Assembly: GCA_937891975.1 (NCBI GenBank)
Contig: CALAUA010000015.1
Span: 145,378-209,377 of the forward strand
Origin: an uncultured Bacteroidales bacterium
GTDB lineage: Bacteria > Bacteroidota > Bacteroidia > Bacteroidales > Paludibacteraceae
DNA length: 64,000 nt
Direction of reading: 5' to 3'
In this document: piece by piece, positions 3,809 through 59,159 of the stretch
Layout: every line of letters starts with the position of its first letter
Numbering within the stretch: position 1 is the first letter of the stretch
Notes under the pieces: generated by a model
Told to the model about the DNA's origin: nothing
Database searches by the model: none
Seen by the model: only the letters and a program-made list of their open reading frames with translations
Position numbers and translations under genes: made by a program

Positions 3809-3840
3809 ATCTCTAAACACTAAACTCGAAACACTAAACG
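3809..3840. repeat. B-word array filling the ddl / polyprenyl synthase junction
   Basis: atctctaaacactaaactcgaaacactaaacg. The ddl stop (3834-3836) lies inside it. Confidence 0.9.
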
Positions 3841-4955
3841 GTGAAATTGTCTTCCACAATTTCACTAAGCACCTGACCAATATTCAATCCTGCTGCGCGT
3901 ATTTGCTGCGGAATAAACGATGTTGCAGTCATACCTGGTGTAGTATTCACTTCTAGCAGATTAATTGTCCATCCTCCCTCTTCGCCTAATCGCCTCATCG
4001 CCTCATCGCCCTCTCGCCTCATCGCCTCATCGCCTGTCAATATATAATCCACGCGAATGATTCCCTTACATCCTAGTATATCGTATATTTTCAGTGTCAG
4101 AGCTTGCACCTCATCGCGCACGCTATCGGGGATACGTGCAGGGGTGATTTCTTCTACTTGTCCGTTGTATTTCGCATCGTAGTCAAAGAACTCGTTGCTT
4201 GTCACCACTTCGGTGATGGGAAAAGCTACGGCTTTGTTTTTAGTCTTGTACACACCGCATGTGATTTCTATGCCCTTCATCTCTGCCTCGCAAATCACCT
4301 CGTCGCCTTCGCCAAAGGCTTTTTCTATCGCGGGTACCACATCTTCCAGAGTCTTCACTTTGGTTACGCCAAACGACGACCCACCTACATTTGTTTTGAT
4401 AAAACATGGCAATCCTACTTGCTTAATAATATCTTCGCCTATCGCCTCATCGCCTAATTGCCTCATCGCCTCTTTGCGCAGCAAAACACTCTCCGCCACA
4501 TTCACACCAAATCCCTTCAGGTACTGGTTGCAGGTGTATTTGTTGAACGTCATGGCTGCAGCCAATACGCCGCAACAGGAGTAGGGTACTCCCACCATGT
4601 CCAAGTATCCTTGCAGCACACCGTTCTCGCCGGGTGTGCCGTGGATAGTGATATATGCAAAGTCAAATTGTATTTTTTCGCCCTTGTAGGTGTATGAGAA
4701 GTCGTTTTTGTCGATATCCACCCACTTTTCAGATTCTATAGGCACGGCACCATTGTGCTTTTCTATCTCTATATTGGTTTCCGCCAATGCGCGCCACTCT
4801 TTCCCACGCAAACAAACAATGGTCAAATCATAGTCATGCCTTGACTCCTGACTTGCGATTTCCGATAAAAACGAGTAGATCCCTGCTGCGCTGCGTAACG
4901 ACACTTCGTATTCCGAACTGTCCCCACCTGCTATGATAGCTATTTTGCGACGCAT
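3834..4955 (-). CDS. ddl: D-alanine--D-alanine ligase
   Basis: ORF trimmed to MRRKIAIIAGGDSSEYEVSLRSA at 4955, because the longer ORF would overlap the tRNA. ATP-grasp motifs: FIKTNVGGSSFGV, LEVNTTPGMT. Confidence 0.9.
   Translation of the reverse strand: MRRKIAIIAGGDSSEYEVSLRSAAGIYSFLSEIASQESRHDYDLTIVCLRGKEWRALAETNIEIEKHNGAVPIESEKWVDIDKNDFSYTYKGEKIQFDFAYITIHGTPGENGVLQGYLDMVGVPYSCCGVLAAAMTFNKYTCNQYLKGFGVNVAESVLLRKEAMRQLGDEAIGEDIIKQVGLPCFIKTNVGGSSFGVTKVKTLEDVVPAIEKAFGEGDEVICEAEMKGIEITCGVYKTKNKAVAFPITEVVTSNEFFDYDAKYNGQVEEITPARIPDSVRDEVQALTLKIYDILGCKGIIRVDYILTGDEAMRREGDEAMRRLGEEGGWTINLLEVNTTPGMTATSFIPQQIRAAGLNIGQVLSEIVEDNFTV
3981..4036. repeat. Seven tandem A-word octamers inside ddl
   Basis: ttcgcctaatcgcctcatcgcctcatcgccctctcgcctcatcgcctcatcgcctg encodes GDEAMRREGDEAMRRLGEE. 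Confidence 0.9.
4434..4473. repeat. Second A-word array inside ddl
   Basis: cttcgcctatcgcctcatcgcctaattgcctcatcgcctc encodes EAMRQLGDEAIGED. Confidence 0.85.
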
Positions 4956-4972: not shown

Positions 4973-5043
4973 TTGCCAAACTAGGACTCGAACCCAGACA
5001 GACAGAACCAGAATCTGTAGTGCTACCATTACACCATTTGGCA
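4973..5043 (-). tRNA. tRNA-Gln (anticodon CTG)
   Basis: The reverse complement folds as a cloverleaf. Acceptor TGCCAAA/TTTGGCA, anticodon stem ACAGA/TCTGT with loop TTCTGGT, T-arm GGGTTCGAGTCC. CCA is not encoded. Confidence 0.85.
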
Positions 5044-5286: not shown

Positions 5287-5640
5287 ATGGATTTAATGAA
5301 AATTGCCGAAGAGGCATTCGCTGGCGAGAAGAAAGAGTTTCCAGCATTCGCTGCAGGTGATCAAGTGACTGTAGCTTATCGTATTAAAGAGGGTAACAAG
5401 GAGCGTATTCAGGAGTTCCGCGGTGATGTTATTTGCATCCACGGTAGCGGTGATAAGAAGCGTTTCACTGTTCGTAAGATGTCTGGCAACGTAGGTGTTG
5501 AGCGTATCTTCCCTATGGATAGCCCATTCATCGAGAAAATTACTGTTAACAAGTACGGTAAAGTTCGTCGCTCTAAATTGTACTACTTGCGTGCACTCAC
5601 TGGTAAGAAAGCTCGTATTCCAGAGCGCCGCGTAAAGTAA
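5287..5640 (+). CDS. rplS: 50S ribosomal protein L19
   Basis: The 117-aa translation is typical L19 ([36 protein letters not shown]). Confidence 0.95.
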
Positions 5641-5866: not shown

Positions 5867-8800
5867 TTACAAGCGATGTCCCTGCGCGTCGAAAATGCCC
5901 TCCGCGGTACGGATGATGAGCTTACCGTCGATGAGGTATTTCTCAATGCCTTTCGCCTCATCGCCTACATTACCCACTCCTGTGGTCACATCCTTCTGTG
6001 GTTGGATATGGAGCGCAAAGCGATTCTCGTAACTACCAGCAGACAGAGTAATGGTATAATCGTCGAGCAAGAGGTTAGTGCGTGTATTTGTCTCGTAGTC
6101 AATGAGTTCTACCACCATACCCTCTGTGCCGTCAGGCATACGGAAGGTGTACTCACCTTCGGTGGCAATCTTCACGCCAACAGGCACGATAACCTCTTCC
6201 ATTGGTAATGTGTTACCCGCAAATGGGATGCCTTCAGACAATGTATAGATATTAGGTTTGCCGCTATTGAATACTTTGTTGAGGTCTTTGTTTTGGTCGA
6301 AGGTCGTTGTACCATCTTCATCTAAAGCTACAAATGTTTGGTCTTGCTTTTCGCCTTCTGTATTGGCAAGTTCGAGGCGCATGGTTACAGATGAACGTTC
6401 TGCTTGTGCTCTGCGAGGTGCCGCCAATGGTTCAGGCACCGTTTCATTGATAGGGTTCCAAGTAATAGTACCTGCAAACTGCACCATATAGCCGTAGAAG
6501 GATTTGTAGGTAGCAGTCTTACCATCTTCAGGAGTATAGTTATAACTTGTTCGGTTATTATTGTTGTCAAAAGTATAACTATATTGATAACGGAAACTTG
6601 GTGCTTCAGTTAATTCTTTATATTCTGGATCATTATCTTTATCATATTCTTTCACAGTCGCATTATTGTAACTGGTAGTACCAATCATCTTCCAGTTGCT
6701 ATCTTGCAAGTAGCGATTATGGAGAGTAAGAGTACATGGATGATTTGGGTAAGTGACAGTAAGTTGTTGCGTTGACTGCTGCTGCAAATCAAATCCACTA
6801 CCGATAGATGGGAAGTAGAGACGTAGCATAGAGATTATTTCTTTTTGTCCTTCTATAACATCGCCATTTGCATCAGTCTTATCCACTTCTATCTCATTCC
6901 ATGTGGCATTTTTCTTGTCAAATGCGAGCAGATATCCTTCACCTGCCTTCAACGTGTCCTTAGGAGACATCCACTCCCAGAATGTTGCCGTCTCTGCATA
7001 CCAACCCTTTTGAGCGCGAAGGTCACCGCGATAGCGTTGAATACCCCATAATTCCATATAACCATGCACACCAGATATACTACCTACCACGCAGTCAAAT
7101 GGTAAAGTGAACATATATTGCTCTTCATGACGTTCGTCTTCATTTGTACTACCACGGTGCAATTCCATTGCAAAGAATAGACTCTTTAAATTATTAATTT
7201 CACCATTGCCAGATAGTGTAATCTGTGGTACATTTTCATTCTCCTTGCGGATGAAAAGTACATCCGCATTTACTGTTTTATCTGTAGTAATAGTTAAGTC
7301 TGTTGCTATTTCCCAAACAGCTATGATTCGGTTCGTTTTGAAATCATACACTACGCGCACTTTATATACGCCATTATCCGTGCCCGAACCAATAACCGTT
7401 TTCTGAATAGGTGTGCTAGTTTCTTCGCCAGTTACTTCATTGATGCCGTAGCCCAATAAGTGGTTATACACAGTAGTATCAGTACGAGGTGATTTGGCTT
7501 CTACATACAGAGAAGCAGAAGGTGTTCCGTTGGTAATATTTACGTAAACATCTCGCTCATATACCCAGTTGCTGACATCGCGGAATTTATTGCCGTCATT
7601 ATTAGTATTGTTTCCGTATGGTAATTTTTTTGTACATTCCTTATCTGCATATGCATTGTCACAATGCAAATTGAGATAGCTTGCGTCTGCACTACCTTGC
7701 AGAACAGCTCGGCCGAAATAGTTGGTACGTGGGTCATAACCGAAGCGTACATTGATAACTTTACCTGTACCAACCTTGATATCGCCATATTCATTAGTAT
7801 TCTTATCTTGCAACAATTTGCCAGCTAGGTCATCGTTGTAGTCGTTTGCCACGCAGGCACTTACATCTTTACCATCGTAACCTCCAGAGTTCATAGCTTG
7901 TACCCAATAGTGGTTGTAGAACTCACCTTCGCGTGAAACAAATTCAGTGAATGTGCGGCTAGCTTTTTCGGAGTCTGTCCAATCATGAATAGAGTTCCAA
8001 CCCTTGTTGCTGATATCGCCATCTGTACCCCATGTACGGATGTAGAAGTTACCTGAATAAACTGCTACATTGGTAAGACCTGTACCATCTGCATTAAGTT
8101 TTGCTGTATAGACGTTTGACGCTGTGAATGTTTCAGGTGCGATTGTTGCATGCAAATTGCCGTTCTTATACAACATGACTACACCTGAACGGTAATTAAC
8201 TTCATCTTTACCAGGAGCAAAGAATGAGAGAATATCAGAGGTGCTGGTGACTATATTAGAAGAATACTCCTTACCATTTTGCATGACTATCTTCACTTGG
8301 TATTCATCTGCATCCTCCCAGCAATAATCGCCAGAACGTGAAATGGAAGGTTGATTCCCATATCCTTCATTTTTCATCGTATAACATCCATCTGTACTAA
8401 CATCTTTTACATCTGGTGATTTGCGCCAATTGTCATTCATGTTTTCATAAAACACCAAGAAACTTGTTTTTCCGTTAGTGTGTAATGGCACTTCCGCTTG
8501 TAGATATTTATACTTTCCAGACTCCTCATACACAAATTCCAATGCAATATCTGCATTATAACCAGAACTATACCAATAGTGTATCTTAATTTCGGAATTA
8601 TTGTTCCAACCAATATTGTCATATGTTCCTCCATCTGCTATTGGCACCTTCACTTGAATAGTGATGTGCGTATCTTTTTCTACGGTTACTTGGAATTTTT
8701 TGGTAACAGTTTCCTCGTGCAATGTGTAGTTCACAGTGATGGTGGTTGTGCCATCTTCGTGACCATATACGATGATGTTGGTTCCTGACATGATAGCTGT

Positions 8801-14328: not shown

Positions 14329-14486
14329 CTATCTTCAGGGTATCTTCAGGGTATCTTCGGGACATCCTATATATATCCCTTATACATCCCTTGGTTATCC
14401 TATGCTGCTCCTTCGGTGAGGTTCCGATGAGATTCCAATCAGGTTCCGATGAGGTTCCGATGGAAGTAAGGGGCATGTAAGGGGCA
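14329..14486. repeat. Composite repeat, left copy (inverted partner at 18699-18834)
   Basis: Three GTATCTTCRGG units, then a ~45-nt unique core (gacatcctatatatatccc..ggttatcctat), a variable 11-nt word module (GAGGTTCCGAT), then ggaagtaaggggcatgtaaggggca. Confidence 0.85.
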
Positions 14487-14490
14487 AATA

Positions 14491-14913
14491 TTATGCCGTC
14501 TGCTTCTTGCGTAACCTAATAACCACCGCCGCCACTGCTGCAAACAATAGCAATATCCATGGTTCGCCTACAGGGCTGCCACCTTGCGTACCAGGGTCAC
14601 CACCTCCGGCAAGATTCTTCCTCCCACTTATTCCTTTTGGACCGCTATTGCTATTGCCACTCTCGCTGGGCGGAGTGTCATTAAACGGCTCATACACAGT
14701 GCCTTGGTATGCCTTGTACTCGGTGGAGAGTGCCTCTGCATTACCCATCACACGATAGTCGCTCTTCATCGCACCACCATACGCTCCCCACTGCTGTGAG
14801 GAAGCGGTCGGTTGTGTATAACCGCCAACTTGATAAGAGTTAGATGCATTGTAGGATTGAGCGTAAACCTCTACGCCAAAAGCAAATAAAATCAGTAAAC
14901 ATGCGCATTTCAT
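14491..14913 (-). CDS. Small secreted Gly/Ser/Pro-rich protein with a PEP-CTERM-like C-terminal anchor (expressed copy)
   Basis: ORF trimmed to MKCACLLILFAFGVEVYAQ at 14913. The C-terminus PVGEPWILLLFAAVAAVVIRLRKKQTA is motif + TM helix + basic tail. A -7 box lies upstream at 15007-15014. Confidence 0.65.
   Translation of the reverse strand: MKCACLLILFAFGVEVYAQSYNASNSYQVGGYTQPTASSQQWGAYGGAMKSDYRVMGNAEALSTEYKAYQGTVYEPFNDTPPSESGNSNSGPKGISGRKNLAGGGDPGTQGGSPVGEPWILLLFAAVAAVVIRLRKKQTA
14657..14817. repeat. Inverted repeat IR-L of the putative inversion switch
   Basis: Reverse complement of 15342-15502 with about 8 mismatches by eye. Lies inside the CDS. Confidence 0.85.
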
Positions 14914-15319: not shown

Positions 15320-15713
15320 GAAAGCGCGCGTTTTTTGTATCACACAACCGACCGCTTCCTCACAGCAGTGGGGAGCGTATGGTGGTGCGATGAAGAGCGA
15401 CTATCGTGTGATGGGTAATGCAGATGTACTCTCAACTGAGTACAAGGCATACCAAGGCACTGTGTATGAGCCGTTTAATAACACTCCTCCAAGCGAGGGT
15501 GGAAGTGGTCCTAGAGGCATCTCTGGCAGACGCAATGGCAACTCTTGGAGTGGTCCTGGTATGGGTGAAGGCAATGGCGGTGAAGAAGGTGATGACCCTA
15601 ATCGTGATGAAGGTGAGCCTGTAGATGGTCCCGTTGGCGAACCCTTTGTGCTGTTGCTGTTTGCGGCAGTGGCGGCACTTTTCGTGGCACGTCGCCAACG
15701 CCAAGCAGCATAA
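15312..15713 (+). other. Promoterless, signal-peptide-less alternative 3' cassette of the small secreted protein
   Basis: Shares TQPTASSQQWGAYGGAMKSDYRVMGNA..LSTEYKAYQGTVYEPFN and the PVGEPFVLLLFAAVAALFVARRQRQAA tail type with 14491-14913. It has only a TTG start, no leader peptide, and a different middle. Confidence 0.6.
15342..15502. repeat. Inverted repeat IR-R of the putative inversion switch
   Basis: Reverse complement of 14657-14817. Confidence 0.85.
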
Positions 15714-18680: not shown

Positions 18681-18698
18681 TTAGGTTGGCCCTTGTAT

Positions 18699-18834
18699 TG
18701 CCCCTTACATGCCCCTTACTTCCATAGGGACTTCATAGGGACTTCGCCGAAGAATCAGTATAGGATAACCAAGGGATGTATAAAGGATATATATAGGATG
18801 TCCCGAAGATACCCTGAAGATACCCCGAAGATAG
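18699..18834. repeat. Composite repeat, right copy (inverted partner of 14329-14486)
   Basis: Same ends and unique core as the left copy. The internal word module is GAAGTCCCTAT instead of GAGGTTCCGAT. Ends 70 nt upstream of the giant gene 2 start. Confidence 0.85.
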
Positions 18835-18903
18835 GGCATTTGGTCATTGGCTTGACCTCTGCTCACAAAACAAAATAATAACTAGACTAAAATAACAAAA
18901 ATC

Positions 18904-27897: not shown

Positions 27898-27922
27898 GAT
27901 TGCTGCCCAAAAACCTCGCTGA

Positions 27923-27968
27923 AGGTTAAAGGTTAAAGGCGAGAGGTTAGAGGTTAGAGGCGAGGATA
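27923..27968. repeat. Heptamer word array GGTTAAA/GGTTAGA/GGCGAGA (F-word)
   Basis: aggttaaaggttaaaggcgagaggttagaggttagaggcgagg, just 3' of the giant gene 2 stop. Confidence 0.9.
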
Positions 27969-28016: not shown

Positions 28017-28114
28017 TTTACACTTTACACCCTACACTTTACACCTTACACTTTACACCTTACACCCTACACCCTACACTTTACACCTTACACTCTACAC
28101 CTTACACCCTACAC
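28017..28114. repeat. Fourteen tandem heptamers YYTACAC (C-word)
   Basis: tttacac tttacac cctacac tttacac cttacac ..., an uninterrupted 7-nt phase that continues into a B-word unit tctaaac. Confidence 0.95.
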
Positions 28115-28151
28115 TCTAAACAGTAGCCCACATCGTGGGCGTTCACTAAAC
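28114..28151. repeat. B-word / GC-hairpin / B-word composite element (copy 1)
   Basis: ctctaaacagta-gcccac-atc-gtgggc-gttcactaaac. Confidence 0.8.
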
Positions 28152-32844: not shown

Positions 32845-32884
32845 AAAAATGCACTTTTTTTTGAGAAAAGTGCATCTTTTTGTT
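32845..32884 (-). terminator. Hairpin terminator downstream of the WYL gene (possibly bidirectional)
   Basis: atgcactttt / aaaagtgcat stem flanked by A-run and T-run. Confidence 0.6.
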
Positions 32885-32915
32885 TAGTGTTTAGAGTTTA
32901 GTGTTTAGAGGCTGG
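32881..32915. repeat. B-word array
   Basis: tgtttagtgtttagagtttagtgtttagaggctggg. The ending ttagaggctggg recurs at 62868-62880. Confidence 0.9.
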
Positions 32916-32928
32916 GTTTAAGTTTACC

Positions 32929-33831
32929 TTAAACACAATACATTTCGTAGGCTTTTTGGGCTTCGTCGCGGAAGATGGCAACTAACTCTTCGGGTTCGCG
33001 TATGCGGATATCTGTGCCGTGGGTACGTAACTCTTGAATGAAATCCAGAGTGGGAGCTATATAATACTCAAAAAATGTATTGCCGTGGAACTGGCGTAGC
33101 TCTTTTTGCGAAGCGTGCAAAGGCAAAAGGCGAAGAAATTGTGCTGATTGAGGCGTTGCTTCGATAATCACCTTCGTAGGCGTAGCATTGCGGAAAACTC
33201 CATAGTAGGGCGCAAAGAAGGACTTGGCGTTGAAGTTCTTAGGATAAACGAACTTGTCGGTTGTGGGGCGCATATCTTGTACCCGATCCAAGGCGTAGAT
33301 ACGCCTCTCATTGGGGTGGGTAGATGGGCAGCCAGCTACATACCATCGTTGCTTAAATACCTTTAAGCAATAAGGTGCAAGCGCCAATTCGTATTGCTCT
33401 TGGCGATTAAAACTGTGATATGTGAAGCGGAGTTGAGTGCGGTGCTTAATGGCATCTACAATCATACTCAGAAATTGTGCCCCCTCGGGAATATCTTCGT
33501 ATAAGATACATGCATTCATATCCTGTGCTTGATCCATCATGGAGTGTACCGCCATAGCATTGAGCAGCCATTTGCGAGTACCACCTGATATATCATCTTT
33601 ATTCTCTATGTAATAGACGTTGCCGCGCGACTTGCTACAACGGATAGTTACATCAAAAATCTCCTGTATTTCCTCTTTATAGCGATGGAACTTACGTTCA
33701 GGAAACTCCGTCTCATGGTTGTCGTTGTAGCGGCAATGTGCCCAACGACGGTTGATATCTTCGCGAGTTAGATTGCCAGAGGCAATCGTGTCAATCAACC
33801 AGAAATAAACGTTTACTTGATGTGCTGCCAT
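32929..33831 (-). CDS. WYL domain-containing transcriptional regulator
   Basis: 300-aa ORF. Central RFTYHSFNRQEQYELALAPYCLKVFKQRWYVAG fits the WYL-domain pattern. The N-terminal region is wHTH-like. Confidence 0.6.
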   Translation of the reverse strand: MAAHQVNVYFWLIDTIASGNLTREDINRRWAHCRYNDNHETEFPERKFHRYKEEIQEIFDVTIRCSKSRGNVYYIENKDDISGGTRKWLLNAMAVHSMMDQAQDMNACILYEDIPEGAQFLSMIVDAIKHRTQLRFTYHSFNRQEQYELALAPYCLKVFKQRWYVAGCPSTHPNERRIYALDRVQDMRPTTDKFVYPKNFNAKSFFAPYYGVFRNATPTKVIIEATPQSAQFLRLLPLHASQKELRQFHGNTFFEYYIAPTLDFIQELRTHGTDIRIREPEELVAIFRDEAQKAYEMYCV

Positions 33832-33841
33832 ATTGTGTGTT

Positions 33842-33870
33842 GAGTGTTTAGAGTTTAGTGTTTAGTGATT
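33842..33870. repeat. B-word array at the U32 / WYL junction
   Basis: gagtgtttagagtttagtgtttagtgatt. The U32 stop (33855-33857) is inside the array. Confidence 0.9.
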
Positions 33871-35618
33871 CGCATTTCGCAGTGTTTGCAGTCGAACTCT
33901 AGAGTGAGGATAGTGCCGTTTTGCAAACGCAGATAGCGTGGTTCGTTGGTCATAGGATTGCTCTTCCTACAGTGTCCTAACTCATGGAGGATACAATATT
34001 TGCAGGTCATGAGGGGGTAATGGGACGCTTCGCTGTAGGACGGCGTGCCGCCTATTGGATATTGGACGCCCGTTGGGCTATTGGGTAATGGACGCTTCGC
34101 TATTGGATATTGGACGCCCTGCGGGCTATGGGAAGCAATGAGCTCTCTACGCCATTGGTTGAGTAAGCTAGTAGGTATGAAATATGGGAAGGTGTCGGAG
34201 CATAATTGGTCGTGTGCAAAGATTTGGATATCGTTGGCGATATAATCAGTATCTCCGAGTTTGCTCAATTGCTGAATGATGGTTTGTAATGCACGCTCTG
34301 GGTTAGTGGCAGATTGATGCTCCGCTTCAAATATCGTACTCTTCTCTCCGATTGTTAGGCGATAGCCTTCTGGTATTATCTCAAAACGAATATCTACTGG
34401 TATTTGTCGTTTGGCTCGCAGCGAACGTAGAAATTCGTTATCGAGATTTCTATACAGCGTTGTTCCGATTACCCGATTCCCGATTTGCGACACCTGAATA
34501 TTTGGAAAAATCCAATCACCTTCTATACGGTTGATTGCGAAGCCTTGATCTTCGTAGCAGATACCATCGCCATTATGCAACGTGATATTGGGACGCAGTT
34601 GCACACGAATGGCATTGTGCTTGGTGGCAATGACTGTGCCAATCTTCTCGCCTGTGGATTTGGGTGTTTGCCAATTCGCCATTTTGGCGGTGCGACCGTG
34701 CAAGAAATAATCAGTACCTCCACGATGAAAAGTCTTAGCAGGGTTAGGAGTGAAACTATATTGATAGACCGAACGTGTAGAGGCATGTTGTAGAGTAGGA
34801 TGACTATCCATTAGTTGGTCAAGCAGTTGACGATAGTATGCCACAATATTGGTGACATAGTCGCGATCCTTTAATCTGCCCTCAATCTTGAAGGTGGTTA
34901 TGCCCGCTTCAATCATCTCAGCAAGATAGCGACTGCGGTCCATATCTTGCAACGAAAGCAGGTAACGCTGGTGAATAGGTTGTCCATTGTTGTCTATAAT
35001 CTCATTGCCATCTTTGTCTAGTAAATCGTAGCGTTGACGGCAGAGTTGGGCGCAGCAACCGCGATTGGCACTACGATTCATCAATGCCTCCGATAGATAA
35101 CATCTACCGCTATAGCTCACGCAAAGGGCTCCGTGGACGAAGGCTTCGAGTTCGATGGGGGCGACTTCGTCGCGGTGTAGGGTGTAGGGGGTAGAGTGTA
35201 AAGTATGGTGGATGTCGCGGATTTGTTCGAGGGATAGTTCGCGTGCGAGGACAGCACGACGGAACCCCATTTGTTGCAAGCGAAGTACTTGCTCTGGGGT
35301 GCGGTTGTCGCATTGCGTAGAAGCATGCAAGCGAATAGGTGGCAAATCGTAATCCAGCAAATGTAGGTCTTGGATAATAAGAGCATCTACTCCTACCTTA
35401 TATAGTTCGTGCGCGAGCGCGCATGCGCGAGGATATTCATCTTCGTGGAGCAGGGTGTTGAGTGTGACAAGTACTTTAACACCAAAGCGATGGGCATACT
35501 TGACCAACTGCGTAATATCCTCCAAAGAGTTGCCTGCTGCTTGGCGCGCACCAAACTCGGGTGCACCAATGTACACCGCATCAGCACCCGCTTGAATGGC
35601 TGCTATTCCTACTTCCAA
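33855..35618 (-). CDS. Peptidase U32 family protein (long form)
   Basis: AGADAVYIGAPEFGARQAAGN, EAFVHGALCVSYSGRCYLS. The conserved N-terminal SLLAPARDLE continues in frame upstream of the TTG at 35618, so the true start may lie at 35643-35666. Confidence 0.85.
   Translation of the reverse strand: MEVGIAAIQAGADAVYIGAPEFGARQAAGNSLEDITQLVKYAHRFGVKVLVTLNTLLHEDEYPRACALAHELYKVGVDALIIQDLHLLDYDLPPIRLHASTQCDNRTPEQVLRLQQMGFRRAVLARELSLEQIRDIHHTLHSTPYTLHRDEVAPIELEAFVHGALCVSYSGRCYLSEALMNRSANRGCCAQLCRQRYDLLDKDGNEIIDNNGQPIHQRYLLSLQDMDRSRYLAEMIEAGITTFKIEGRLKDRDYVTNIVAYYRQLLDQLMDSHPTLQHASTRSVYQYSFTPNPAKTFHRGGTDYFLHGRTAKMANWQTPKSTGEKIGTVIATKHNAIRVQLRPNITLHNGDGICYEDQGFAINRIEGDWIFPNIQVSQIGNRVIGTTLYRNLDNEFLRSLRAKRQIPVDIRFEIIPEGYRLTIGEKSTIFEAEHQSATNPERALQTIIQQLSKLGDTDYIANDIQIFAHDQLCSDTFPYFIPTSLLNQWRRELIASHSPQGVQYPIAKRPLPNSPTGVQYPIGGTPSYSEASHYPLMTCKYCILHELGHCRKSNPMTNEPRYLRLQNGTILTLEFDCKHCEMRITKH
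34021..34135. repeat. TATTGGA/CTATTGG word block (D-word) inside the U32 CDS
   Basis: ...ggacggcgtgccgcctattggatattggacgcc...gctattggatattggacgccc... encodes GVQYPIAKRPLPNSPTGVQYPIGGTPSYSE. Confidence 0.85.
34463..34490. repeat. E-word heptamers inside the U32 CDS
   Basis: ttccgattacccgattcccgatttgcga encodes QIGNRVIG. Confidence 0.75.
35174..35206. repeat. C-word heptamers inside the U32 CDS
   Basis: ggtgtagggtgtagggggtagagtgtaaagtat encodes HTLHSTPYTLH. Confidence 0.8.
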
Positions 35619-35650: not shown

Positions 35651-35683
35651 AGTTGACAATTGACAGTTTACAGTTGACAGTTA
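35651..35683. repeat. GACAGTT/GACAATT word array at the trmH-like / U32 junction
   Basis: agttgacaattgacagtttacagttgacagtta. Includes the upstream stop codon. Confidence 0.85.
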
Positions 35684-36208
35684 GCGGAGCATATTGCTGA
35701 GTTGGTACATGACTATACCAGCAGTAACGCTGACGTTGAGCGAGTGCTTGGTACCATACTGCGGAATCTCAATACAACCATCGGCAGCATCTACTACCTC
35801 TTGTTGTACACCAAACACCTCATGTCCCATCACAATAGCAGTCTTTTGATTTTGAGGCAATTGTAGGTCACCAAGCATGGTCGCTCCATGTGCTTGCTCA
35901 ATGGCATAGACCGTATAGCCGTCGGCTTGCAACGCCTTGACGGCATCCAGAGTGTGCTCAAAATAGCGCCAATCCACGGTGAGTTCTGCACCGAGGGCGG
36001 TCTTGTGAATCTCGTTGTTGGGTGGACAGCAACATATTCCACACAGCCATACTCCTTGCAGGCAAAATGCATCCGCTGTGCGGAATACGGCACCGATATT
36101 ATGTTGGCTGCGGACATTGTCCAGTACCACAACGAGGGGTACCTTCTGTGCCTCGTGGAATGCCTCTGGGGTGAGGCGGTTCATTTCTTGTATCGTTGTT
36201 TTTTGCAT
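35681..36208 (-). CDS. SpoU/TrmH-family RNA 2'-O-methyltransferase
   Basis: LVVVLDNVRSQHNIGAVFRTADAF, IVMGHEVFGV, IEIPQYGTKHSLNVSVTAGIVMY. Confidence 0.85.
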   Translation of the reverse strand: MQKTTIQEMNRLTPEAFHEAQKVPLVVVLDNVRSQHNIGAVFRTADAFCLQGVWLCGICCCPPNNEIHKTALGAELTVDWRYFEHTLDAVKALQADGYTVYAIEQAHGATMLGDLQLPQNQKTAIVMGHEVFGVQQEVVDAADGCIEIPQYGTKHSLNVSVTAGIVMYQLSNMLR

Positions 36209-36244: not shown

Positions 36245-36343
36245 AATAGTGCGTGTATTGTGCGTTTATTGTGCGTGTATTGTGCGTGAATAGTGCGTCT
36301 ATTGTGCGTGTATTGTGCGTGAATAGTGCGTCTATTGTGCGTG
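36245..36343. repeat. Nine tandem 11-nt units WATWGTGCGTN (G-word)
   Basis: aatagtgcgtg tattgtgcgtt tattgtgcgtg ..., exact 11-nt phase. Fills the rimM / trmH-like junction and encodes the last residues and stop of rimM. Confidence 0.95.
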
Positions 36344-36841
36344 AAATATAAAAGGCAAACAGATGGTCAGTAATTCGTTTTCTTGGTCAATATTGATGAT
36401 AAAATCCTCGTGTAGCGGAATGAGTTGGTCGTTGTCAAGGGTGATGAGGGTGTTGATAGTGGTTTCATCCACGTGTACGATGGTGCCCAGTTCGCCTTGA
36501 TCGGTATCCAATACTCGGTAGCCCGTAAGACTTTGCCAAGTAGGCAGCAGTTCATCTTCTTCGCTTAGATCGCTGGCGAGCATATATGCCTGACAACCAA
36601 TGAGTGCTTGTGCCGATTGTTCATCCGTGATATGATCCAGTTGGAAGATAAGCGAGTCGCTACCTTTGCCACGCCAATCAAGTACACGGAAAGGAACAAG
36701 GATATTGTCGATGTTGAGAATAAGGAAAGTAGCATCTGCATTATCCCAAAACTCGTTGCTAGTAAGGCACTGAATTTCACCACGTTTCCCATGTGTGCGG
36801 GTGATGCGGCCAATAGCTATTACTTCTTCTTTTGTTATCAT
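36332..36841 (-). CDS. rimM: Ribosome maturation factor RimM
   Basis: IGRITRTHGKRGEI N-terminal motif, a PRC-barrel-like C-terminus, and size 169 aa. Confidence 0.8.
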   Translation of the reverse strand: MITKEEVIAIGRITRTHGKRGEIQCLTSNEFWDNADATFLILNIDNILVPFRVLDWRGKGSDSLIFQLDHITDEQSAQALIGCQAYMLASDLSEEDELLPTWQSLTGYRVLDTDQGELGTIVHVDETTINTLITLDNDQLIPLHEDFIINIDQENELLTICLPFIFHAQ

Positions 36842-47118: not shown

Positions 47119-47916
47119 CTACTCTTTTCGGAAAATATCTTCGGGATATTCTACATGCGTGAGAAATAGCCCTTCAGCAGGGGCTGAGTCGCCTGCTGCG
47201 CAGCGGTTGTGCTGCGTGATGACCTCGGCAAACTGCTCCTTAGTCATCTTACCACGACCGACTTCAAACAATGTACCTACTACCGCACGCACCATATTAC
47301 GCAGAAAACGGTCAGCAGCGATAGTGAATACGGCGTGTCCGTTGCCCAATTCTTTCCACTCAGCACGCGTAAGGTCGCAAATCGTGGTCTTGACATCCGT
47401 ATTCGTGCGGCAGAAAGAAGCAAAATCCTGTTTGCCAATCAACAATTGTGCTGCCTCATTCATCGCTGCGAAGTCCAATCCTGGGCGTACACGCGTGGCT
47501 TGTGTACAAAGGAAAGGGTCTTTGTGATCAATGATATGATATTCGTATGTACGACGCACTGCATCAAAGCGTGCATGCGCATCATCCCTCACAGGGTAAA
47601 CATCAAAGACTGCGATAGAATCGGGCAAAATGCCGTTGAGGCGGAAGACCAAATTAGGGGGTATAGGACGCACTATTGGGCTATTGGACGGTGTTCCGCC
47701 TATTGGATATTGGCTATTGGGTAAATCAAAATGCGCATACATCTCGCGGGCATGTACACCTGCGTCGGTGCGACCAGCAAAAGTGAACGGTACCTCCTCA
47801 CGGAAAATCATAGCCAACGCCTGTTCCATAGTTTCCTGAACAGTCACGCCATTAGGCTGGCGTTGCGAGCCATGAAAGGCAGTACCATCATATGCAAAGC
47901 GGAGGAAATAGCGCAT
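47119..47916 (-). CDS. truA: tRNA pseudouridine(38-40) synthase TruA
   Basis: RYFLRFAYDGTAFHGSQRQPNG, AGRTDAGVHA, RFLRNMVRAVVGTL. Confidence 0.9.
   Translation of the reverse strand: MRYFLRFAYDGTAFHGSQRQPNGVTVQETMEQALAMIFREEVPFTFAGRTDAGVHAREMYAHFDLPNSQYPIGGTPSNSPIVRPIPPNLVFRLNGILPDSIAVFDVYPVRDDAHARFDAVRRTYEYHIIDHKDPFLCTQATRVRPGLDFAAMNEAAQLLIGKQDFASFCRTNTDVKTTICDLTRAEWKELGNGHAVFTIAADRFLRNMVRAVVGTLFEVGRGKMTKEQFAEVITQHNRCAAGDSAPAEGLFLTHVEYPEDIFRKE
47660..47721. repeat. D-word block inside the truA CDS
   Basis: ctattgggctattggacggtgttccgcctattggatattggctattgg encodes NSQYPIGGTPSNSPIV. Shares about 30 nt with the U32 insert. Confidence 0.85.
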
Positions 47917-51954: not shown

Positions 51955-53469
51955 TTATTTCTTCTTAATGAGCGTCTTTCCATCCAAACGATAGAAGATG
52001 ACACAATATATAATAAGGAGTATAGTACCTATACCCATTTTCATCCATTCATTGATTGGCAATAAGTGTGCCAAAGTGTAATATTCTGCCAAAAGTGTCA
52101 CTACAAGTAGGGTATATATGCCAATTCGGCGCAAATCGTATGGTATCTCGAGGTGTTTGCGTCCCACGAGATAGGACAGTAGCATAATCACGAAATAGCA
52201 TATAGTACTGCTGGCTGCGGAAGCCATATATCCAATTCGTGGCACGAAAATAGCTTGCAATGCGAAGGTAATCACCACGCCGATGATGGAGAAGTAGGCG
52301 CCCCATTGCGTCTTGTCGGTGAGTTTGTACCAGAAGCTGAGGTTGAAATACACACCTTGGAAGATATATGTCCAGAGGACTACTGGTACGATTTTTAGTC
52401 CTTCCCAATAGGAAGGGGCGATGATAAACTTCAGTAGGTCGAGGTAGAAAATCATCCCCAAGAGAATCATGTAGGAGAAGATGATATAGTATTTCATTGC
52501 ATCTGCATAGGCAGCTACGGATTCGCGGTCTTTGTGTTTGGCAAAGACAAAGGGTTCGTAGGCGTAGCGGAATGCTTGGGTGAACATCATCATTACCATC
52601 GCCACTTTGAAGCAGGCTCCGTAGATACCTAACTGCGCTTGCGCATCGGCTCCGTCATAGAAGAAGGGGAAGAGGATACGGTCAAGCGTTTGGTTCATTA
52701 TACCGCACACCCCCAAGACCAAGAGGGGCAACGAGTAGCGAAGCATTCGCTTCAGCAATTTTCCTGAAAATAGTCGTCGGGAGTCGGAAGTCGGGAGTCC
52801 GTGCTCATTTTTAAAGCCCTCAACTATCGCTGGTAACAAACATAGTGTTTGTATGCCCGTAGCCAAGATATTTGCCACGAAGACATACCCTACTCCATAG
52901 TTGGGATTGTACCATGAGGAGATGATTGCCCAATCCTGAATCTTCGGACAAAGTACGAGGAAGAAGAGATTGAGGGCGATATTGAGGAATACGAATAGGA
53001 GTTTGAGTGCCGCAAATTGCAAAGGGCGTTTCTTGTAGCGCAAGTATGCAAATGGAATACTAGCGAAGGCATCCATTGCCACTACTATACCGAGCAGTGC
53101 GATGAACTCGCTGTGCGTAGGGTATCCCAATGCGGTGGCAATAGGCATTTGCCATATCACACATGCTACGGCGAACAGTAAAGAGGTAGTAAAAAGCGTA
53201 ATGAGCGAAGTTCTATAAACCGTCTTAGGATTTTCTTCGGTTTTGTTGGCAAAGCGGAAGAAACCCGTTTCCATACCGTAGGTGAGAATCACTAGCAATA
53301 GTGCTGTCCACGCATAGAGGTTGGTCACGATACCATAATCTGACTGCTGTTGCAGCACGTATGTGTACAGCGGAACGAGCAGCCAGTTGAGAAACTTGCC
53401 TACAATGGATGAGACGCCATAAATGGCGGTTTCTTTAGCCAATATTTTCATTTGCAGATTACTGCTCAT
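51955..53469 (-). CDS. MOP-superfamily flippase / polysaccharide biosynthesis protein
   Basis: 504-aa polytopic membrane protein with a Wzx/MurJ-like N-terminus. Confidence 0.65.
   Translation of the reverse strand: MSSNLQMKILAKETAIYGVSSIVGKFLNWLLVPLYTYVLQQQSDYGIVTNLYAWTALLLVILTYGMETGFFRFANKTEENPKTVYRTSLITLFTTSLLFAVACVIWQMPIATALGYPTHSEFIALLGIVVAMDAFASIPFAYLRYKKRPLQFAALKLLFVFLNIALNLFFLVLCPKIQDWAIISSWYNPNYGVGYVFVANILATGIQTLCLLPAIVEGFKNEHGLPTSDSRRLFSGKLLKRMLRYSLPLLVLGVCGIMNQTLDRILFPFFYDGADAQAQLGIYGACFKVAMVMMMFTQAFRYAYEPFVFAKHKDRESVAAYADAMKYYIIFSYMILLGMIFYLDLLKFIIAPSYWEGLKIVPVVLWTYIFQGVYFNLSFWYKLTDKTQWGAYFSIIGVVITFALQAIFVPRIGYMASAASSTICYFVIMLLSYLVGRKHLEIPYDLRRIGIYTLLVVTLLAEYYTLAHLLPINEWMKMGIGTILLIIYCVIFYRLDGKTLIKKK
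52774..52800. repeat. E-word heptamers inside the flippase CDS
   Basis: tcgtcgggagtcggaagtcgggagtcc encodes GLPTSDSRR in a predicted loop. Confidence 0.8.
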
Positions 53470-53475
53470 ATCTCA

Positions 53476-53509
53476 CTATCTTCGGGGTATCTTCGGGATA
53501 TCTTCAGGA
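53476..53509. repeat. 11-nt word array GTATCTTCGGG (H-word) at the rsmI / flippase junction
   Basis: ctatcttcggggtatcttcgggatatcttcagga. The same word opens the composite repeats at 14329 and 18834. Confidence 0.9.
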
Positions 53510-53513
53510 TAAA

Positions 53514-54236: not shown

Positions 54237-55025
54237 TTACGCGAAGCGTCTCTTGAGTACGTTCTCGAAGAGTTGTACTGCGGTGGACTCTTTGTCCCAA
54301 TCGAAGTTGTCGAGCACGTAGTCCATCGCCTCGTTGAGTGAACCGAGATTGTTAATTTCATCCAATGTTTTTTGCATCAACTCACCATTGCCTGCAAAGA
54401 GTTCGCGTTGAAAGAGGAAACGGTCCCCCAAAGAGATAGCTTGGCGGATATCCTCTACTGCCGCACCAAACAACGATGTTTGTTGTGGCACAGGACGTGG
54501 AGCAGGTTGTGGAGCAGGTGCTGGCTCTACCACTGGCTCTGCCTTTACTTCTGGTTGTGGAGCAGGTTCCACGATTGGTTCCACCACTGGCTCTGCCGTT
54601 GCTTCTGGTTGTGGAGCAGGTGCTGGCGCTACAACTGGTTCTTCTACAACCGGTGCTTCTACCTCTGGAGTATCTATAATATCCAGCGTTTCTAGTTCTT
54701 CTTTAACTTCCTCTTGTGGTTTTTCTGCGGGCTCTTCAGCGAACTCGTTTTCAATTGTCACCTCTTCGTTTTCACTTTCAGTTTCTTCTTCAACGATGAG
54801 TTCGATCTCTACTTCTGGTTCTGCAGCTTGTGCAGCTACAGCACCTGTAGCTGCCAATGCAGCCACTTCGGCTTGCAAGGTTGCTATTAGGGCTTTCGCC
54901 TCATCGCCTTCTCGCCTCATTGCCTCATTGGCTTCTTCGAGTTGCGCCACACGCGCCTCCAGAGCAGAGAGTTTCTGCTCCAGAGCGGTCGTGTAGTTGG
55001 TTATTGCTTGAATAAGATTGTTCAT
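54237..55025 (-). CDS. Hypothetical protein: coiled coil + acidic / Pro-rich EPVVEP repeats + C-terminal globular domain
   Basis: 262-aa ORF. Low-complexity centre PAPAPQPEATAEPVVEPIVEPAPQPEVKAEPVVEPAPAPQPAP. Confidence 0.5.
   Translation of the reverse strand: MNNLIQAITNYTTALEQKLSALEARVAQLEEANEAMRREGDEAKALIATLQAEVAALAATGAVAAQAAEPEVEIELIVEEETESENEEVTIENEFAEEPAEKPQEEVKEELETLDIIDTPEVEAPVVEEPVVAPAPAPQPEATAEPVVEPIVEPAPQPEVKAEPVVEPAPAPQPAPRPVPQQTSLFGAAVEDIRQAISLGDRFLFQRELFAGNGELMQKTLDEINNLGSLNEAMDYVLDNFDWDKESTAVQLFENVLKRRFA
54896..54932. repeat. A-word octamers inside the CDS
   Basis: ttcgcctcatcgccttctcgcctcattgcctcattgg encodes NEAMRREGDEAK. Confidence 0.8.
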
Positions 55026-57537: not shown

Positions 57538-58581
57538 CTATATTTCCACTACCATACACCATCCGTGCTTGTCTTCAGTGCGACCATACTGGATGTCCTG
57601 CAAGGCGTGGTATAGCTTTGTGAGTACAGGGCCTGGCTTGTCGCCGAAAGGGTAGGTGATATTCTTGTCAGGGTCGAAGACCTTGGTCAGAGGCGAAATA
57701 ACGCACGCTGTACCGCAAGCAGCTGCTTCTTGAATATCAGTCAATTCCTCTACACGAATATGACGGCGAGTGACCTTCATACCCATCTCACGCGCCAAAG
57801 TCATCAACGAATCGTTGGTGATGCTAGGCAAAATGGCACTACTGCGGGGGGTGAGGTATTCGAAGTAAGATTCCCGATTCTCGACTCCCGACTCATGATG
57901 CTTTATTCCTATGAAATTGGATGCCGTGCACTCATCAATATACTTGTGCGTTTTAGCATCGGTGAACATACACTCATAGCCCATGGCGTGTGCCGCTTCG
58001 CTGGCGCGGAAGGATGCCGCGTAGTTACCACCCACTTTCCAGCAGCCCGTACCTTGTGGTGCCGCACGATCAATGGTGCGGTTCACTATTGCAGGTATGC
58101 CTTTGAAACCATTGGGGAAATACGAACCGATAGGTGTAGGAATGACCACAAACTCGCAGTCTTTGCCAGGCCCCACACTAATATCAGGCGTAGTAGCAAC
58201 TAGCAACGGACGGAAATAGAGCGTGGCGCCAGTCTCGTAAGGAGGAAGGAAAGCGATATTCTTCTCCAATGCCAGTAAAATAGCTTCGCAAAAGAGTTCA
58301 ACGGGCACGGGTGTCATCAGTAGTCCCTCGGCGGAGTGGTACATGCGTTTGGCGTTCTCCTCCATGCGGAAGATACGCACCTTACCGTCCACACCACGAA
58401 AGGCCTTTAGCCCTTCGAAGCACTCTTGACCATAGTGCAGGCCCGTGGCTGCGGCATGGATAGGAATCATCTTGTCGCGTGTGGCATAGGGGCGCTCCCA
58501 TACACCATTCTTGCATGCCGCACGAACGATATAGTCCGTCTCGGTATAGTGAAATGTCAGTTTATTCCAGTCTATATTCAT
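57538..58581 (-). CDS. ilvE: Branched-chain amino acid aminotransferase
   Basis: HYGQECFEGLKAFR, GNYAAS, class IV fold length 347 aa. Confidence 0.85.
   Translation of the reverse strand: MNIDWNKLTFHYTETDYIVRAACKNGVWERPYATRDKMIPIHAAATGLHYGQECFEGLKAFRGVDGKVRIFRMEENAKRMYHSAEGLLMTPVPVELFCEAILLALEKNIAFLPPYETGATLYFRPLLVATTPDISVGPGKDCEFVVIPTPIGSYFPNGFKGIPAIVNRTIDRAAPQGTGCWKVGGNYAASFRASEAAHAMGYECMFTDAKTHKYIDECTASNFIGIKHHESGVENRESYFEYLTPRSSAILPSITNDSLMTLAREMGMKVTRRHIRVEELTDIQEAAACGTACVISPLTKVFDPDKNITYPFGDKPGPVLTKLYHALQDIQYGRTEDKHGWCMVVEI
57871..57895. repeat. E-word heptamers inside the ilvE CDS
   Basis: ttcccgattctcgactcccgactca encodes ESGVENRE. Confidence 0.8.
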
Positions 58582-59111
58582 ATCTTCATTACGGATTCAG
58601 GTCCGTATTCAAATAATATGTCTAATATGCTTTGTCCGTTGCCGAATGCTTGCTCTAAATCTTGCCCTGCCCAATCTGTAGTGGTAATCAGTCTTTGTTC
58701 TTGGCTCTTGGTTCTTGGTTCATCGTTCGCTATCAAACGAATGATTACCTCGTGGATTTTCTCGTTGAAATCGACCAAAAAGCGTGTTTCTTGTTCGTAG
58801 AACGGGCGGAAGAAATCGGCGTAATAATCGAAGTAGGGTGTACGTTTGTAAGCACTCACGAGAGCAATCCAATGCTGATGTTGCCAACGCTTCTGGTAAC
58901 TAATCTCCACATCGCGAGTGAACTGTTTGCTATCCACGCGCTTCACGGGCACAGTAAGTGTCAGTGGCCCGTCTGGTGTGGCGATAGTACACCGATTGCG
59001 GTAGGTTTGCTTCGGAAAACTCTCCATTACCTCAATCTGCACTGCCGATGGATTCGCCAAAAACTGGCTGTACCATTCCGCAGGACCCATATATGTTGTT
59101 GGTAGTATCAT
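58578..59111 (-). CDS. WbqC-like family protein
   Basis: 177 aa. N-terminus ILPTTYMGPAEWYSQF and FPKQTYRNRCTI resemble the WbqC family. From memory only. Confidence 0.5.
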   Translation of the reverse strand: MILPTTYMGPAEWYSQFLANPSAVQIEVMESFPKQTYRNRCTIATPDGPLTLTVPVKRVDSKQFTRDVEISYQKRWQHQHWIALVSAYKRTPYFDYYADFFRPFYEQETRFLVDFNEKIHEVIIRLIANDEPRTKSQEQRLITTTDWAGQDLEQAFGNGQSILDILFEYGPESVMKI

Positions 59112-59120
59112 GTTTTTGGT

Positions 59121-59159
59121 ATCGGGAATCAGGAATCAGGAATCGGGACTCGGGAATCC
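59121..59159. repeat. E-word heptamer array at the lepB / wbqC-like junction
   Basis: atcgggaatcaggaatcaggaatcgggactcgggaatcc. Confidence 0.9.

Follow-up and report, generated by a model that had tools for sequence, protein, structure and literature searches.

How the same short block of DNA comes to stand, in the same reading frame, in two unrelated housekeeping genes is the question raised by a 64,000-nucleotide (nt) stretch of contig CALAUA010000015.1 (positions 145,378 to 209,377 of the forward strand; assembly GCA_937891975.1), the whole of which is called the window below. It derives from an uncultured Bacteroidales bacterium of the Paludibacteraceae, and an initial annotation, made from the letters alone, had noticed the block in the genes of a U32-family peptidase and of the tRNA pseudouridine synthase TruA. 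We found that the two blocks are probably copies of a lineage-specific family of miniature, modular repeats resembling repetitive extragenic palindromic (REP) sequences, copied at the DNA level between unrelated loci. The two host genes are as follows.

33855-35618, minus strand: host gene 1, a U32-family peptidase (Peptidase_U32 PF01136, DUF3656 and a C-terminal Cys-rich domain), from its open reading frame (ORF) and Pfam
47119-47916, minus strand: host gene 2, truA, tRNA pseudouridine synthase A, from its ORF and Pfam PF01416

The block shared by the U32 and truA genes

The exact 18-mer CCGCCTATTGGATATTGG occurs twice on the plus strand of the window, at 34048-34065 and at 47696-47713, and at least two matches to it were seen in 0 of 100 dinucleotide-preserving shuffles of the window. 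When two mismatches are allowed, the shared block grows to 31 nt, in agreement with the length of about 30 nt first reported, and the likeness between the two genes extends even past it, to AGGGGGTA(A)T(G)GGACGC at one end and CTATTGGGTAA at the opposite end. In both ORFs the block is translated as QYPIGGTPS, with an identical frame relative to the block, as had been stated. The heptamer CTATTGG is enriched in the window (23 copies versus 8.3 expected), and clusters of ATTGG (at least three within 60 nt) are present in it only at the U32 and truA sites.

In the U32 gene the block is part of a larger composite (at site B), which can be parsed into five hairpin units.

34012..34130, minus strand: U32 composite element at site B (sequence, frame and parse)
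34112..34130, minus strand: hairpin unit 1, 19 nt, CATAG + CCC-gca-GGG + CGTCC, with a 4-bp stem including the closing G-C pair and a 3-nt GCA loop
34090..34104, minus strand: hairpin unit 2, 15 nt, AATAG-C-gaa-G-CGTCC, holding GCGAAGC, a classic stable DNA mini-hairpin sequence
34064..34082, minus strand: hairpin unit 3, 19 nt, AATAG + CCC-aac-GGG + CGTCC (parse)
34033..34065, minus strand: frame-neutral 33-nt block, CCAATAT + CCAATAG + GCG-gca-CGC-C + GTCC + TACAG, encoding QYPIGGTPSYS and holding the 18-mer at 34048-34065
34023..34037, minus strand: hairpin unit 5, 15 nt, TACAG-C-gaa-G-CGTCC (parse)

On the coding strand the first half of the composite reads CATAG-CCCgcaGGG-CGTCC / AATATCC / AATAG-CgaaG-CGTCC / ATTACCC / AATAG-CCCaacGGG-CGTCC and the remainder AATATCC / AATAG-GCGgcaCGC-CGTCC / TACAG-CgaaG-CGTCC / CATTACCCCCT, the whole being translated as SHSPQGVQYPIAKRPLPNSPTGVQYPIGGTPSYSEASHYP. 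This segment occupies the linker that joins DUF3656 to the C-terminal Cys-rich domain, where distant U32 homologues mostly have an unrelated subdomain of ~60 residues, or nothing. The linker has been filled by unrelated repeats in different lineages, since P0121, the closest 50%-cluster representative of the U32 protein (61% identity), carries there its own, different tandem repeat, SGFKFQVSGDEP, twice. The nearer orthologues L023 (82% identity) and L060 (78%) have elements at site B with another unit composition, the differences being indels of 15 nt and of 19+8 nt, and L060 bears an extra copy at a second site (site A), which in the window is unoccupied by an element. Against the PDB, the U32 protein gave no sequence match at E<=0.001.

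Other features of this gene may be recorded here. Site A (34465-34485) is a CCGATTA heptamer tract in the window, and it is there that L060 has its hairpin element. Site C (35174-35200) consists of CTACAC-type words with a period of ~10 nt, encoding YTTLHNT..., and is a lineage-specific insertion of 13 residues relative to distant homologues. The ORF downstream of the gene (32929-33831, minus strand) seems, by position only, to match the WYL + WCX protein (Pfam) that adjoins U32 in L023 and L060, in which an intergenic element follows that gene.

The truA composite is shorter and can be parsed into two hairpin units.

47656..47721, minus strand: truA composite element (sequence and parse)
47681..47713, minus strand: frame-neutral 33-nt block, CCAATAT + CCAATAG + GCGGAACACC + GTCC + AATAG, encoding QYPIGGTPSNS and holding the 18-mer at 47696-47713

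Its coding strand reads CCCAATAG / CCAATAT / CCAATAG-GCGgaaCAC-CGTCC / AATAG-CCCaataGTG-CGTCC / TATACCCCCT, with the translation PNSQYPIGGTPSNSPIVRPIPP. Escherichia coli TruA (1dj0) has a gap of 15 residues precisely opposite this segment; an AlphaFold2 model of the window protein, built on a shallow alignment, reached a mean predicted local distance difference test (pLDDT) score of only 54, and the insert was located through gaps relative to solved homologues instead. In TruA proteins otherwise 85-99% identical, the stretch from HFD to FRLNGILP is hypervariable, being filled by the full element, by a one-hairpin form (NSPKGHP), by unrelated sequence or by a form 12 residues shorter, the relatives at 85-91% identity having other fillings or the shorter form; even the peptide of the block varies (GG to GE, GK, SK or GT). 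At the DNA level the loop is a heptanucleotide tract in all relatives examined, for example CCAATTG/CCAATCG x4 or AATTCTT x3, and the alleles L091 and L094 differ by an indel of exactly the 33-nt block, bounded by (C)CAA(T/C)AG direct repeats. The window copy is decaying, because each of its two hairpins carries one stem-breaking substitution; among the relatives the stems are intact in L094 and L095 (GCG..CGC and CCC..GGG), register-shifted in L097 and broken at several places in L096. Over five relatives, 21 of the 66 element columns vary (32%), compared with 28% for the whole gene and 66% for its third positions, and the variation is not adenine-specific, as it is in targets of diversity-generating retroelements. 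The view that the segments are foreign to both protein families is borne out by these homologue alignments, which show them filling a variable loop or linker in a lineage-specific manner.

Dispersal and modular grammar of the family

A scan for the 18-mer through the whole bacterial and archaeal collection (one genome per species; 596 Gb) gave 89 loci, 78 of them in metagenome-assembled genomes (MAGs) of Paludibacteraceae/Bacteroidales, with up to seven loci per genome; many of these MAGs carry sample names such as sheep, yak, buffalo, deer, cattle and faecal. The remaining 11 loci belong to other phyla and are devoid of flanking element features, about 17 chance matches being estimated for 596 Gb, and the viral contigs scanned for the 18-mer contained no copy. 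The family is restricted to uncultured Paludibacteraceae/Bacteroidales of the herbivore gut. A literature search found neither the element sequence nor the peptide in any searchable paper.

Distinct intragenic sites number 21 and are spread over 19 proteins. According to Pfam, the hosts are a sigma-54 activator (with the element between the AAA lid and the helix-turn-helix domain), a flavin adenine dinucleotide (FAD)-dependent protein (two sites), CobW, MnmA, a MATE transporter, an NrnA-like DHH protein, RecJ, an SDH_alpha-like protein (two sites), a CN-hydrolase and YggS; U32 (two sites) and TruA are added by the window and its orthologues, and Mfd, an AddB-like nuclease and a 4-alpha-glucanotransferase were assigned by eye. 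Solved homologues of MnmA and RecJ have gaps of 12 and 19 residues exactly opposite the element, and the inserts lie in loops, predicted to be at the surface, and in interdomain linkers. Frame and orientation, which the initial annotation had proposed to record at every match, were the same at all 21 sites, namely sense to the host gene and in the QYPIGGTPS frame. In addition, there are about seven independent intergenic sites, which count toward copying at the level of DNA rather than of peptide. The proposal that DNA shared by non-homologous genes reflects copying and not common descent is thus carried well beyond the original pair, with the block, including its conserved synonymous positions, found at 21 unrelated intragenic sites as well as intergenic ones.

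The element is built of modules. In it, a conserved linker, GTCC(A/C)ATAG, alternates in the form ...CGTCC-(A/C)ATAG... with a mini-hairpin of variable but complementary stem, whose closing pair is formed by G from ATAG and C from CGTCC; the resulting units of 19 or 15 nt are arranged head to tail, with CCAATAG or CCAATAT heptamers between them and, frequently, GTCC-ATTACCC at the end. Stems of 2-6 bp differ in sequence between units and keep their pairing, the arms seen including GCG/CGC, CCC/GGG, C/G, GC/GC, CAGC/GCTG, CTCGC/GCGAG, CGCC/GGCG, CCTC/GAGG and CCCAC/GTGGG. Indeed, 33 distinct perfect hairpins with 11 different stem arms were counted, versus 1.5 expected (at most 6 in 1000 shuffles). 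The imperfect stems contain G·U in about four distinct cases and A·C in about four, as judged by eye on a small sample. Loops are mostly of the GNA type (GAA 71, GCA 26, GTA 7), the commonest hairpin being GCG-GAA-CGC, and the 15-nt units contain GCGAAGC, GCGCAGC or GCGTAGC. The earlier remark that the blocks are not palindromic holds for the composite as a whole, since the 126-nt U32 composite folds as DNA no better than its shuffles (z = -0.46) and is no long palindrome, but it does not hold for the single units, each of which contains a mini-hairpin. As RNA, the same composite folds modestly better than shuffles (z = -2.2). A search of the window with Rfam assigned no family to the elements, its sole match being a tRNA gene (4973-5043, minus strand).

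This grammar imposes a reading frame. Every ATAG contains TAG, so that, in all composites tested, exactly one sense frame is open and the other two are closed, while one to three antisense frames are open. Since each 19-nt unit moves the frame by one nucleotide, a set of modules can sit inside a gene only when its total length is a multiple of three, the frame-neutral sums being 15, 21, 12, 33 (7+7+19) and 45 (19+7+19) nt. The block CCAATAT + CCAATAG + GCGGAACGCC + GTCC + AATAG, that is, 7+7+19 = 33 nt or 11 codons encoding QYPIGGTPSNS, a stretch rich in Pro, Gly, Ser, Thr and Asn, recurs in ORFs because it is such a sum, and the AATAT variant stands precisely where an in-frame TAG would otherwise occur (GTC CAA TAT). 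Indels between orthologues likewise comprise whole modules, the MATE gene differing by 12 nt (one hairpin + CGT) and the gene of the FAD-dependent protein by 21 nt (three heptamers). Moreover, individual elements present identical DNA words in two frames, GGG CGT CC being read as GRP and GGC GTC C as GVQ, with SNS and PIG/PIA as further two-frame readings; therefore, what is shared is DNA and not peptide.

Two loci show special arrangements. In the recJ gene of L050, a Paludibacteraceae MAG, an inverted element pair lies at 5350-5480, where the antisense copy KGRSGAAMGRSQSELMDNG is directly followed by the sense copy SNSPEGVQYPIAQRPIP; a further element cluster lies elsewhere along the same gene. 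In L020 (3440-3540), an element begins right after the TAG stop of the 4-alpha-glucanotransferase gene, which also has an in-frame copy upstream, recalling REP tags that supply or adjoin stop codons.

Conservation, orientation and competing explanations

Conservation was compared at six orthologous sites, represented by 3-11 species each, with the ascertained 18-mer excluded. Variable columns amounted to 16 of 178 (9%) in the element and to 28% in the flanking coding sequence. At codon positions 1, 2 and 3, the element varied at 7, 8 and 12%, respectively, and the flanks at 10, 7 and 52% (third position, Fisher p = 1e-9). Each orthologous site retains its own unit composition across species, and the copies at such sites are therefore vertically inherited. 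The truA copy, unlike these six sites, evolves faster and decays; the signature of nucleotide-level conservation, which may reflect either constraint or homogenisation, is accordingly not universal.

Orientation follows the gene. In addition to the 21 sense sites (21/21), six or seven of the seven intergenic sites are co-oriented with the adjacent genes, their usual place being downstream of a gene or in the gap between unidirectional genes, and among the intragenic copies without the 18-mer a single one is antisense, that beside the sense copy in L050 recJ. The GC skew of the element-sense strand in the 8-kb loci was positive for 11 orthologous groups and negative for 18 in a rough test; since the skew is mixed, orientation appears to follow the gene rather than the replication strand. 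On the same rough test, strand-specific insertion of the IS200/IS605 type is disfavoured. An apparent antisense copy in L025 proved to be an artefact of a spurious longer ORF opposite mnmA, and single antisense matches to GTCC[AC]ATAG, again excepting L050 recJ, were at chance level and had no element features.

To account for the dispersal, we favour DNA-level copying, in which composites have been copied between unrelated loci and then altered locally by the gain or loss of whole modules. Two candidate routes may be considered, namely, template switching or ectopic conversion between the microhomologies of heptamers and linkers, and a putative trans-acting enzyme, as proposed for REPs; we infer that the family spread by the one or the other. 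A possible reason for the sense orientation and for the conservation of nucleotides is that hairpins form in the transcript or on the non-template strand of the DNA.

Several observations weigh against this reading. Neither a Y1_Tnp domain nor a REP-associated tyrosine transposase (RAYT) was seen among the ten ORFs beside intergenic copies, all of them ordinary genes, within the ~8 kb available per locus. Neither terminal inverted repeats nor a clear target-site duplication was detected, the ends CCAATAT... and ...GTCC-ATTACCC not being inverted copies of each other. Comparison of filled with empty sites points to replacement within repeat-prone loops rather than to clean insertion, and the only duplication seen in such comparisons, the CCAATAG linker repeat, is itself part of the element. 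Hence the original description of the blocks as inserted is correct relative to homologues, but not in the sense of clean insertion into pristine sequence, both loops being hypervariable and repeat-prone. Head-to-tail arrays and a mainly intragenic location are atypical for REPs. The conservation is too high for passive DNA, which hints at function or homogenisation. Finally, all loci were recruited by one exact 18-mer and cover ~8 kb each, less than about 1% of each genome, so that the sampling is biased.

In a different explanation, the units would be cis-acting nucleic-acid signals under purifying selection, forming arrays of mini-hairpins in mRNA or on the non-template strand (for example, as sites for proteins that bind RNA or single-stranded DNA (ssDNA), as elements of stability or pausing or to mark processing), and their translation would be a tolerated by-product. 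The constraint indeed lies at the nucleotide level, the variability of the element being flat over codon positions. The few substitutions at orthologous sites fall largely in loops, paralogous GCG hairpins vary at the middle N of GNA, stems covary across units, orientation tracks transcription at the intergenic sites also and not GC skew, and RNA-level roles have been proposed for transcribed REPs (PMC3733652). On the other hand, truA copies decay without apparent harm (two broken stems in the window, several in L096), the sites are hypervariable between slightly more distant relatives, the host genes are not united by any theme that would require one signal for all, no Rfam family matches, the intergenic sample is small (seven sites), and the estimate of conservation comes from loci chosen through an intact 18-mer. 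We regard selection on cis-acting signals as a rather unlikely explanation. A further proposal, which we put forward only tentatively, is that the arrays would constitute a conserved nucleic-acid code in the sense strand of ORFs and untranslated regions across a bacterial family; a putative trans-acting factor might read them as hairpins in RNA or on the non-template strand and either propagate them, by transcription-coupled, non-RAYT copying, or use them for the simultaneous regulation of many housekeeping genes.

It might also be supposed that no copying between loci took place, slippage of heptamers and other short non-triplet repeats having built similar tracts independently, with the 30-mer as a convergent product of a small vocabulary. 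Tandem repeats of periods 7, 8 and 11 in many units, some within genes, abound in the window, heptamers of differing units make up the truA loop of each relative, and the whole-module indels between orthologues are typical of slippage. Slippage cannot, however, yield at 21 unrelated sites an identical ordered composite of 33-50 nt, in which a specific 10-nt hairpin and the change of TAG to TAT are included; heptamers and linkers that recur at many loci require a common source, and elsewhere in the 596-Gb collection the 18-mer occurs only at the chance level, which makes independent origin very unlikely. Least probable of all is a functional peptide module (QYPIGGTPS...) selected as protein, acting, for example, as linker, modification site or interaction motif, for although the same peptide recurs in many proteins, always in loops or linkers, and its Pro/Gly/Ser/Thr-rich composition resembles that of natural linkers, synonymous positions are conserved as much as non-synonymous ones, one element is read in two frames, copies are present in non-coding DNA, the hosts range from cytoplasmic enzymes to membrane proteins (MATE) with no shared pathway, and the truA peptide varies freely.

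Relation to known repeats and other repeats of the window

Among known systems, the tagged REPs described by Di Nocera et al. (2013, PMC3733652) come closest. These are units of 20-40 bp composed of short hairpins with conserved unpaired tags, GTAG or CGTC, and stems of 5-13 bp (GTAG) or 8-9 bp (CGTC); intragenic copies in several species encode 20-30 residues, often in genes for DNA repair or tRNA modification, including truA of Stenotrophomonas maltophilia (PMC3733652). The present family has stem-loops with tag-like foot motifs, here (A/C)ATAG on the 5' side and CGTC(C) on the 3' side, dozens of dispersed copies whose stems differ between subsets with pairing preserved, in-frame copies in repair and tRNA-modification genes (Mfd, RecJ, AddB-like nuclease, MnmA and TruA), and intergenic copies downstream of or between unidirectional genes, where the TAG of the tag may adjoin a stop codon. 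It differs in its shorter stems (2-6 bp), in units of only 15-19 nt with mostly GNA triloops, and in a 5' tag (ATAG/CATAG) that departs from GTAG by one base; CGTC has its C paired to the G of ATAG, and the layout published for CGTC REPs, CGTC-stem(AT...)-CCA, is not reproduced. Classical REPs are mostly extragenic and form head-to-head or tail-to-tail dimers, head-to-tail ones being rare (PMC3733652), whereas this family forms head-to-tail arrays with heptamer spacers (the lone inverted pair is that of L050 recJ) and is mainly intragenic (21 sites versus about 7 intergenic) and almost exclusively sense. Association with RAYTs, which are Y1 transposases of the IS200/IS605 type, is known for GTAG REPs only (PMC3733652). 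Unlike the known tagged REPs, the family resides in Paludibacteraceae; no RAYT was seen beside its intergenic copies in the ~8-kb loci sampled.

Rickettsia palindromic elements (RPEs), which the initial annotation named as the closest precedent, are an apt comparison in behaviour; intragenic tagged REPs are nonetheless closer, and RPE-4 and RPE-6 of Rickettsia conorii are themselves CGTC REPs (PMC3733652). As with RPEs, selfish-looking repeats lie in frame in many unrelated housekeeping genes, with a conserved peptide and at positions compatible with the fold, as seen from the single frame shared by the 21 sites in 19 proteins and from the gaps in solved TruA, MnmA and RecJ. RPE-1-type elements are, however, wholly palindromic over ~100-150 bp, in contrast to the modules of 7-19 nt and recurrent block of 33 nt without a long palindrome found here, and their hosts are obligate intracellular Alphaproteobacteria rather than free-living gut Bacteroidales. 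The family appears to be a Bacteroidota counterpart of intragenic REPs and RPEs, sharing with the tagged REPs the tag-hairpin-tag logic and the intragenic behaviour.

Other comparisons capture single aspects. The TAACTGA heptanucleotide direct repeats of Beggiatoaceae, Cyanobacteria and a few Bacteroidetes are overwhelmingly intergenic (PMC4679880). Common to both is one heptamer at many loci of a genome, with built-in stops that limit placement and orientation relative to ORFs; the heptamers of the present family are, by contrast, interleaved with hairpin units and lie mostly inside genes, in frame. The heptamers of the cyanobacterial short tandemly repeated repetitive (STRR) sequences are comparable repeats, and the small dispersed repeats (SDRs) of cyanobacteria studied by Elhai are reportedly very small hairpin-bearing units nested in heptamer tracts. 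MITEs, or miniature inverted-repeat transposable elements, are similarly small, non-autonomous and dispersed, with occasional in-frame fusions, but the family is modular and lacks their terminal inverted repeats, target-site duplication and fixed length. Runs of CCAATAG/T and 21-nt changes of copy number recall simple heptamer tandem repeats; the recurrent composite is not a simple tandem and is common to unlinked loci. The DNA mini-hairpins d(GCGNAGC) and d(C-GNA-G) are extraordinarily stable (PMC13037366, PMC3201870). GCGAAGC, GCGCAGC and GCGTAGC of the 15-nt units and the C-GNA-G core of CCC-GCA-GGG match them, a likeness by sequence only; the commonest hairpin, GCG-GAA-CGC, closes with G-C and not C-G, and such mini-hairpins are defined by their biophysics rather than as genetic elements.

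Selfish-looking repeats that colonise housekeeping genes in frame have been known mainly from Rickettsia, Opitutus and some Proteobacteria; the present family would extend their range to free-living gut Bacteroidota. The grammar is transparent, in that the built-in TAG stops and the module lengths explain which combinations live in genes, and near-absolute sense orientation, covarying stems and nucleotide conservation across species make the family a tractable system for asking whether REP-like elements are merely tolerated or act as RNA or ssDNA signals, and how they may spread without a dedicated transposase. In practical terms, the segments enlarge and diversify loops of conserved proteins in rumen MAGs and may mislead alignment, orthology assignment and structure prediction.

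The family resides in a genome with a general propensity for short non-triplet repeats, the window being rich in tandem repeats of many units with periods of 7, 8, 11 and 14, some of them within U32. Period-7 repeats lie at 2816-2854, 3811-3839, 27922-27964, 28018-28118, 32881-32910, 33837-33867, 35651-35682, 52776-52799, 57872-57894, 58692-58728 and 59121-59158, with the units CTCTAAA/CACTAAA, AAGGTTA, TTACACC (x14), TGTTTAG, AGTTGAC, GTCGGGA/TCCCGAC, TCTTGGT and ATCGGGA. Several of these tracts are at gene boundaries, for example right after the U32 stop and right upstream of the U32 start, and CTAAACA-type tracts occur at several intergenic sites. An octamer family, TCGCCTCA / CCTCATCG, is found at 3081-3126, 3977-4035, 4435-4472, 5948-5967 and 54891-54928; in related loci it abuts hairpin elements, as in the CobW gene and in that of a small protein, and is translated in frame (SSPHSP, LIASSPNSPSP).

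An inverted repeat (14329-14487 / 18698-18838), with arms of ~110-160 nt and 88-89% identity, surrounds a 4.2-kb segment with four ORFs. Its arms consist of runs of 11-mers, each present 2-4 times (TATCTTCAGGG, ACATCCCTTAT, TGAGGTTCCGA and GTAAGGGGCAT), and within the segment lies a separate inverted repeat of 176 nt (14642-14817 / 15342-15517; 91%). The sequence TATCTTCGGGA is found again at 53477-53511. Lastly, an 11-mer array, GTGCGTGTATT x8.6 with a 33-nt super-period, extends over 36249-36343, sharing 12 nt with the 3' end (stop codon) of the minus-strand ORF 36332-36841 and partly filling the gap to the minus-strand ORF 35681-36208.

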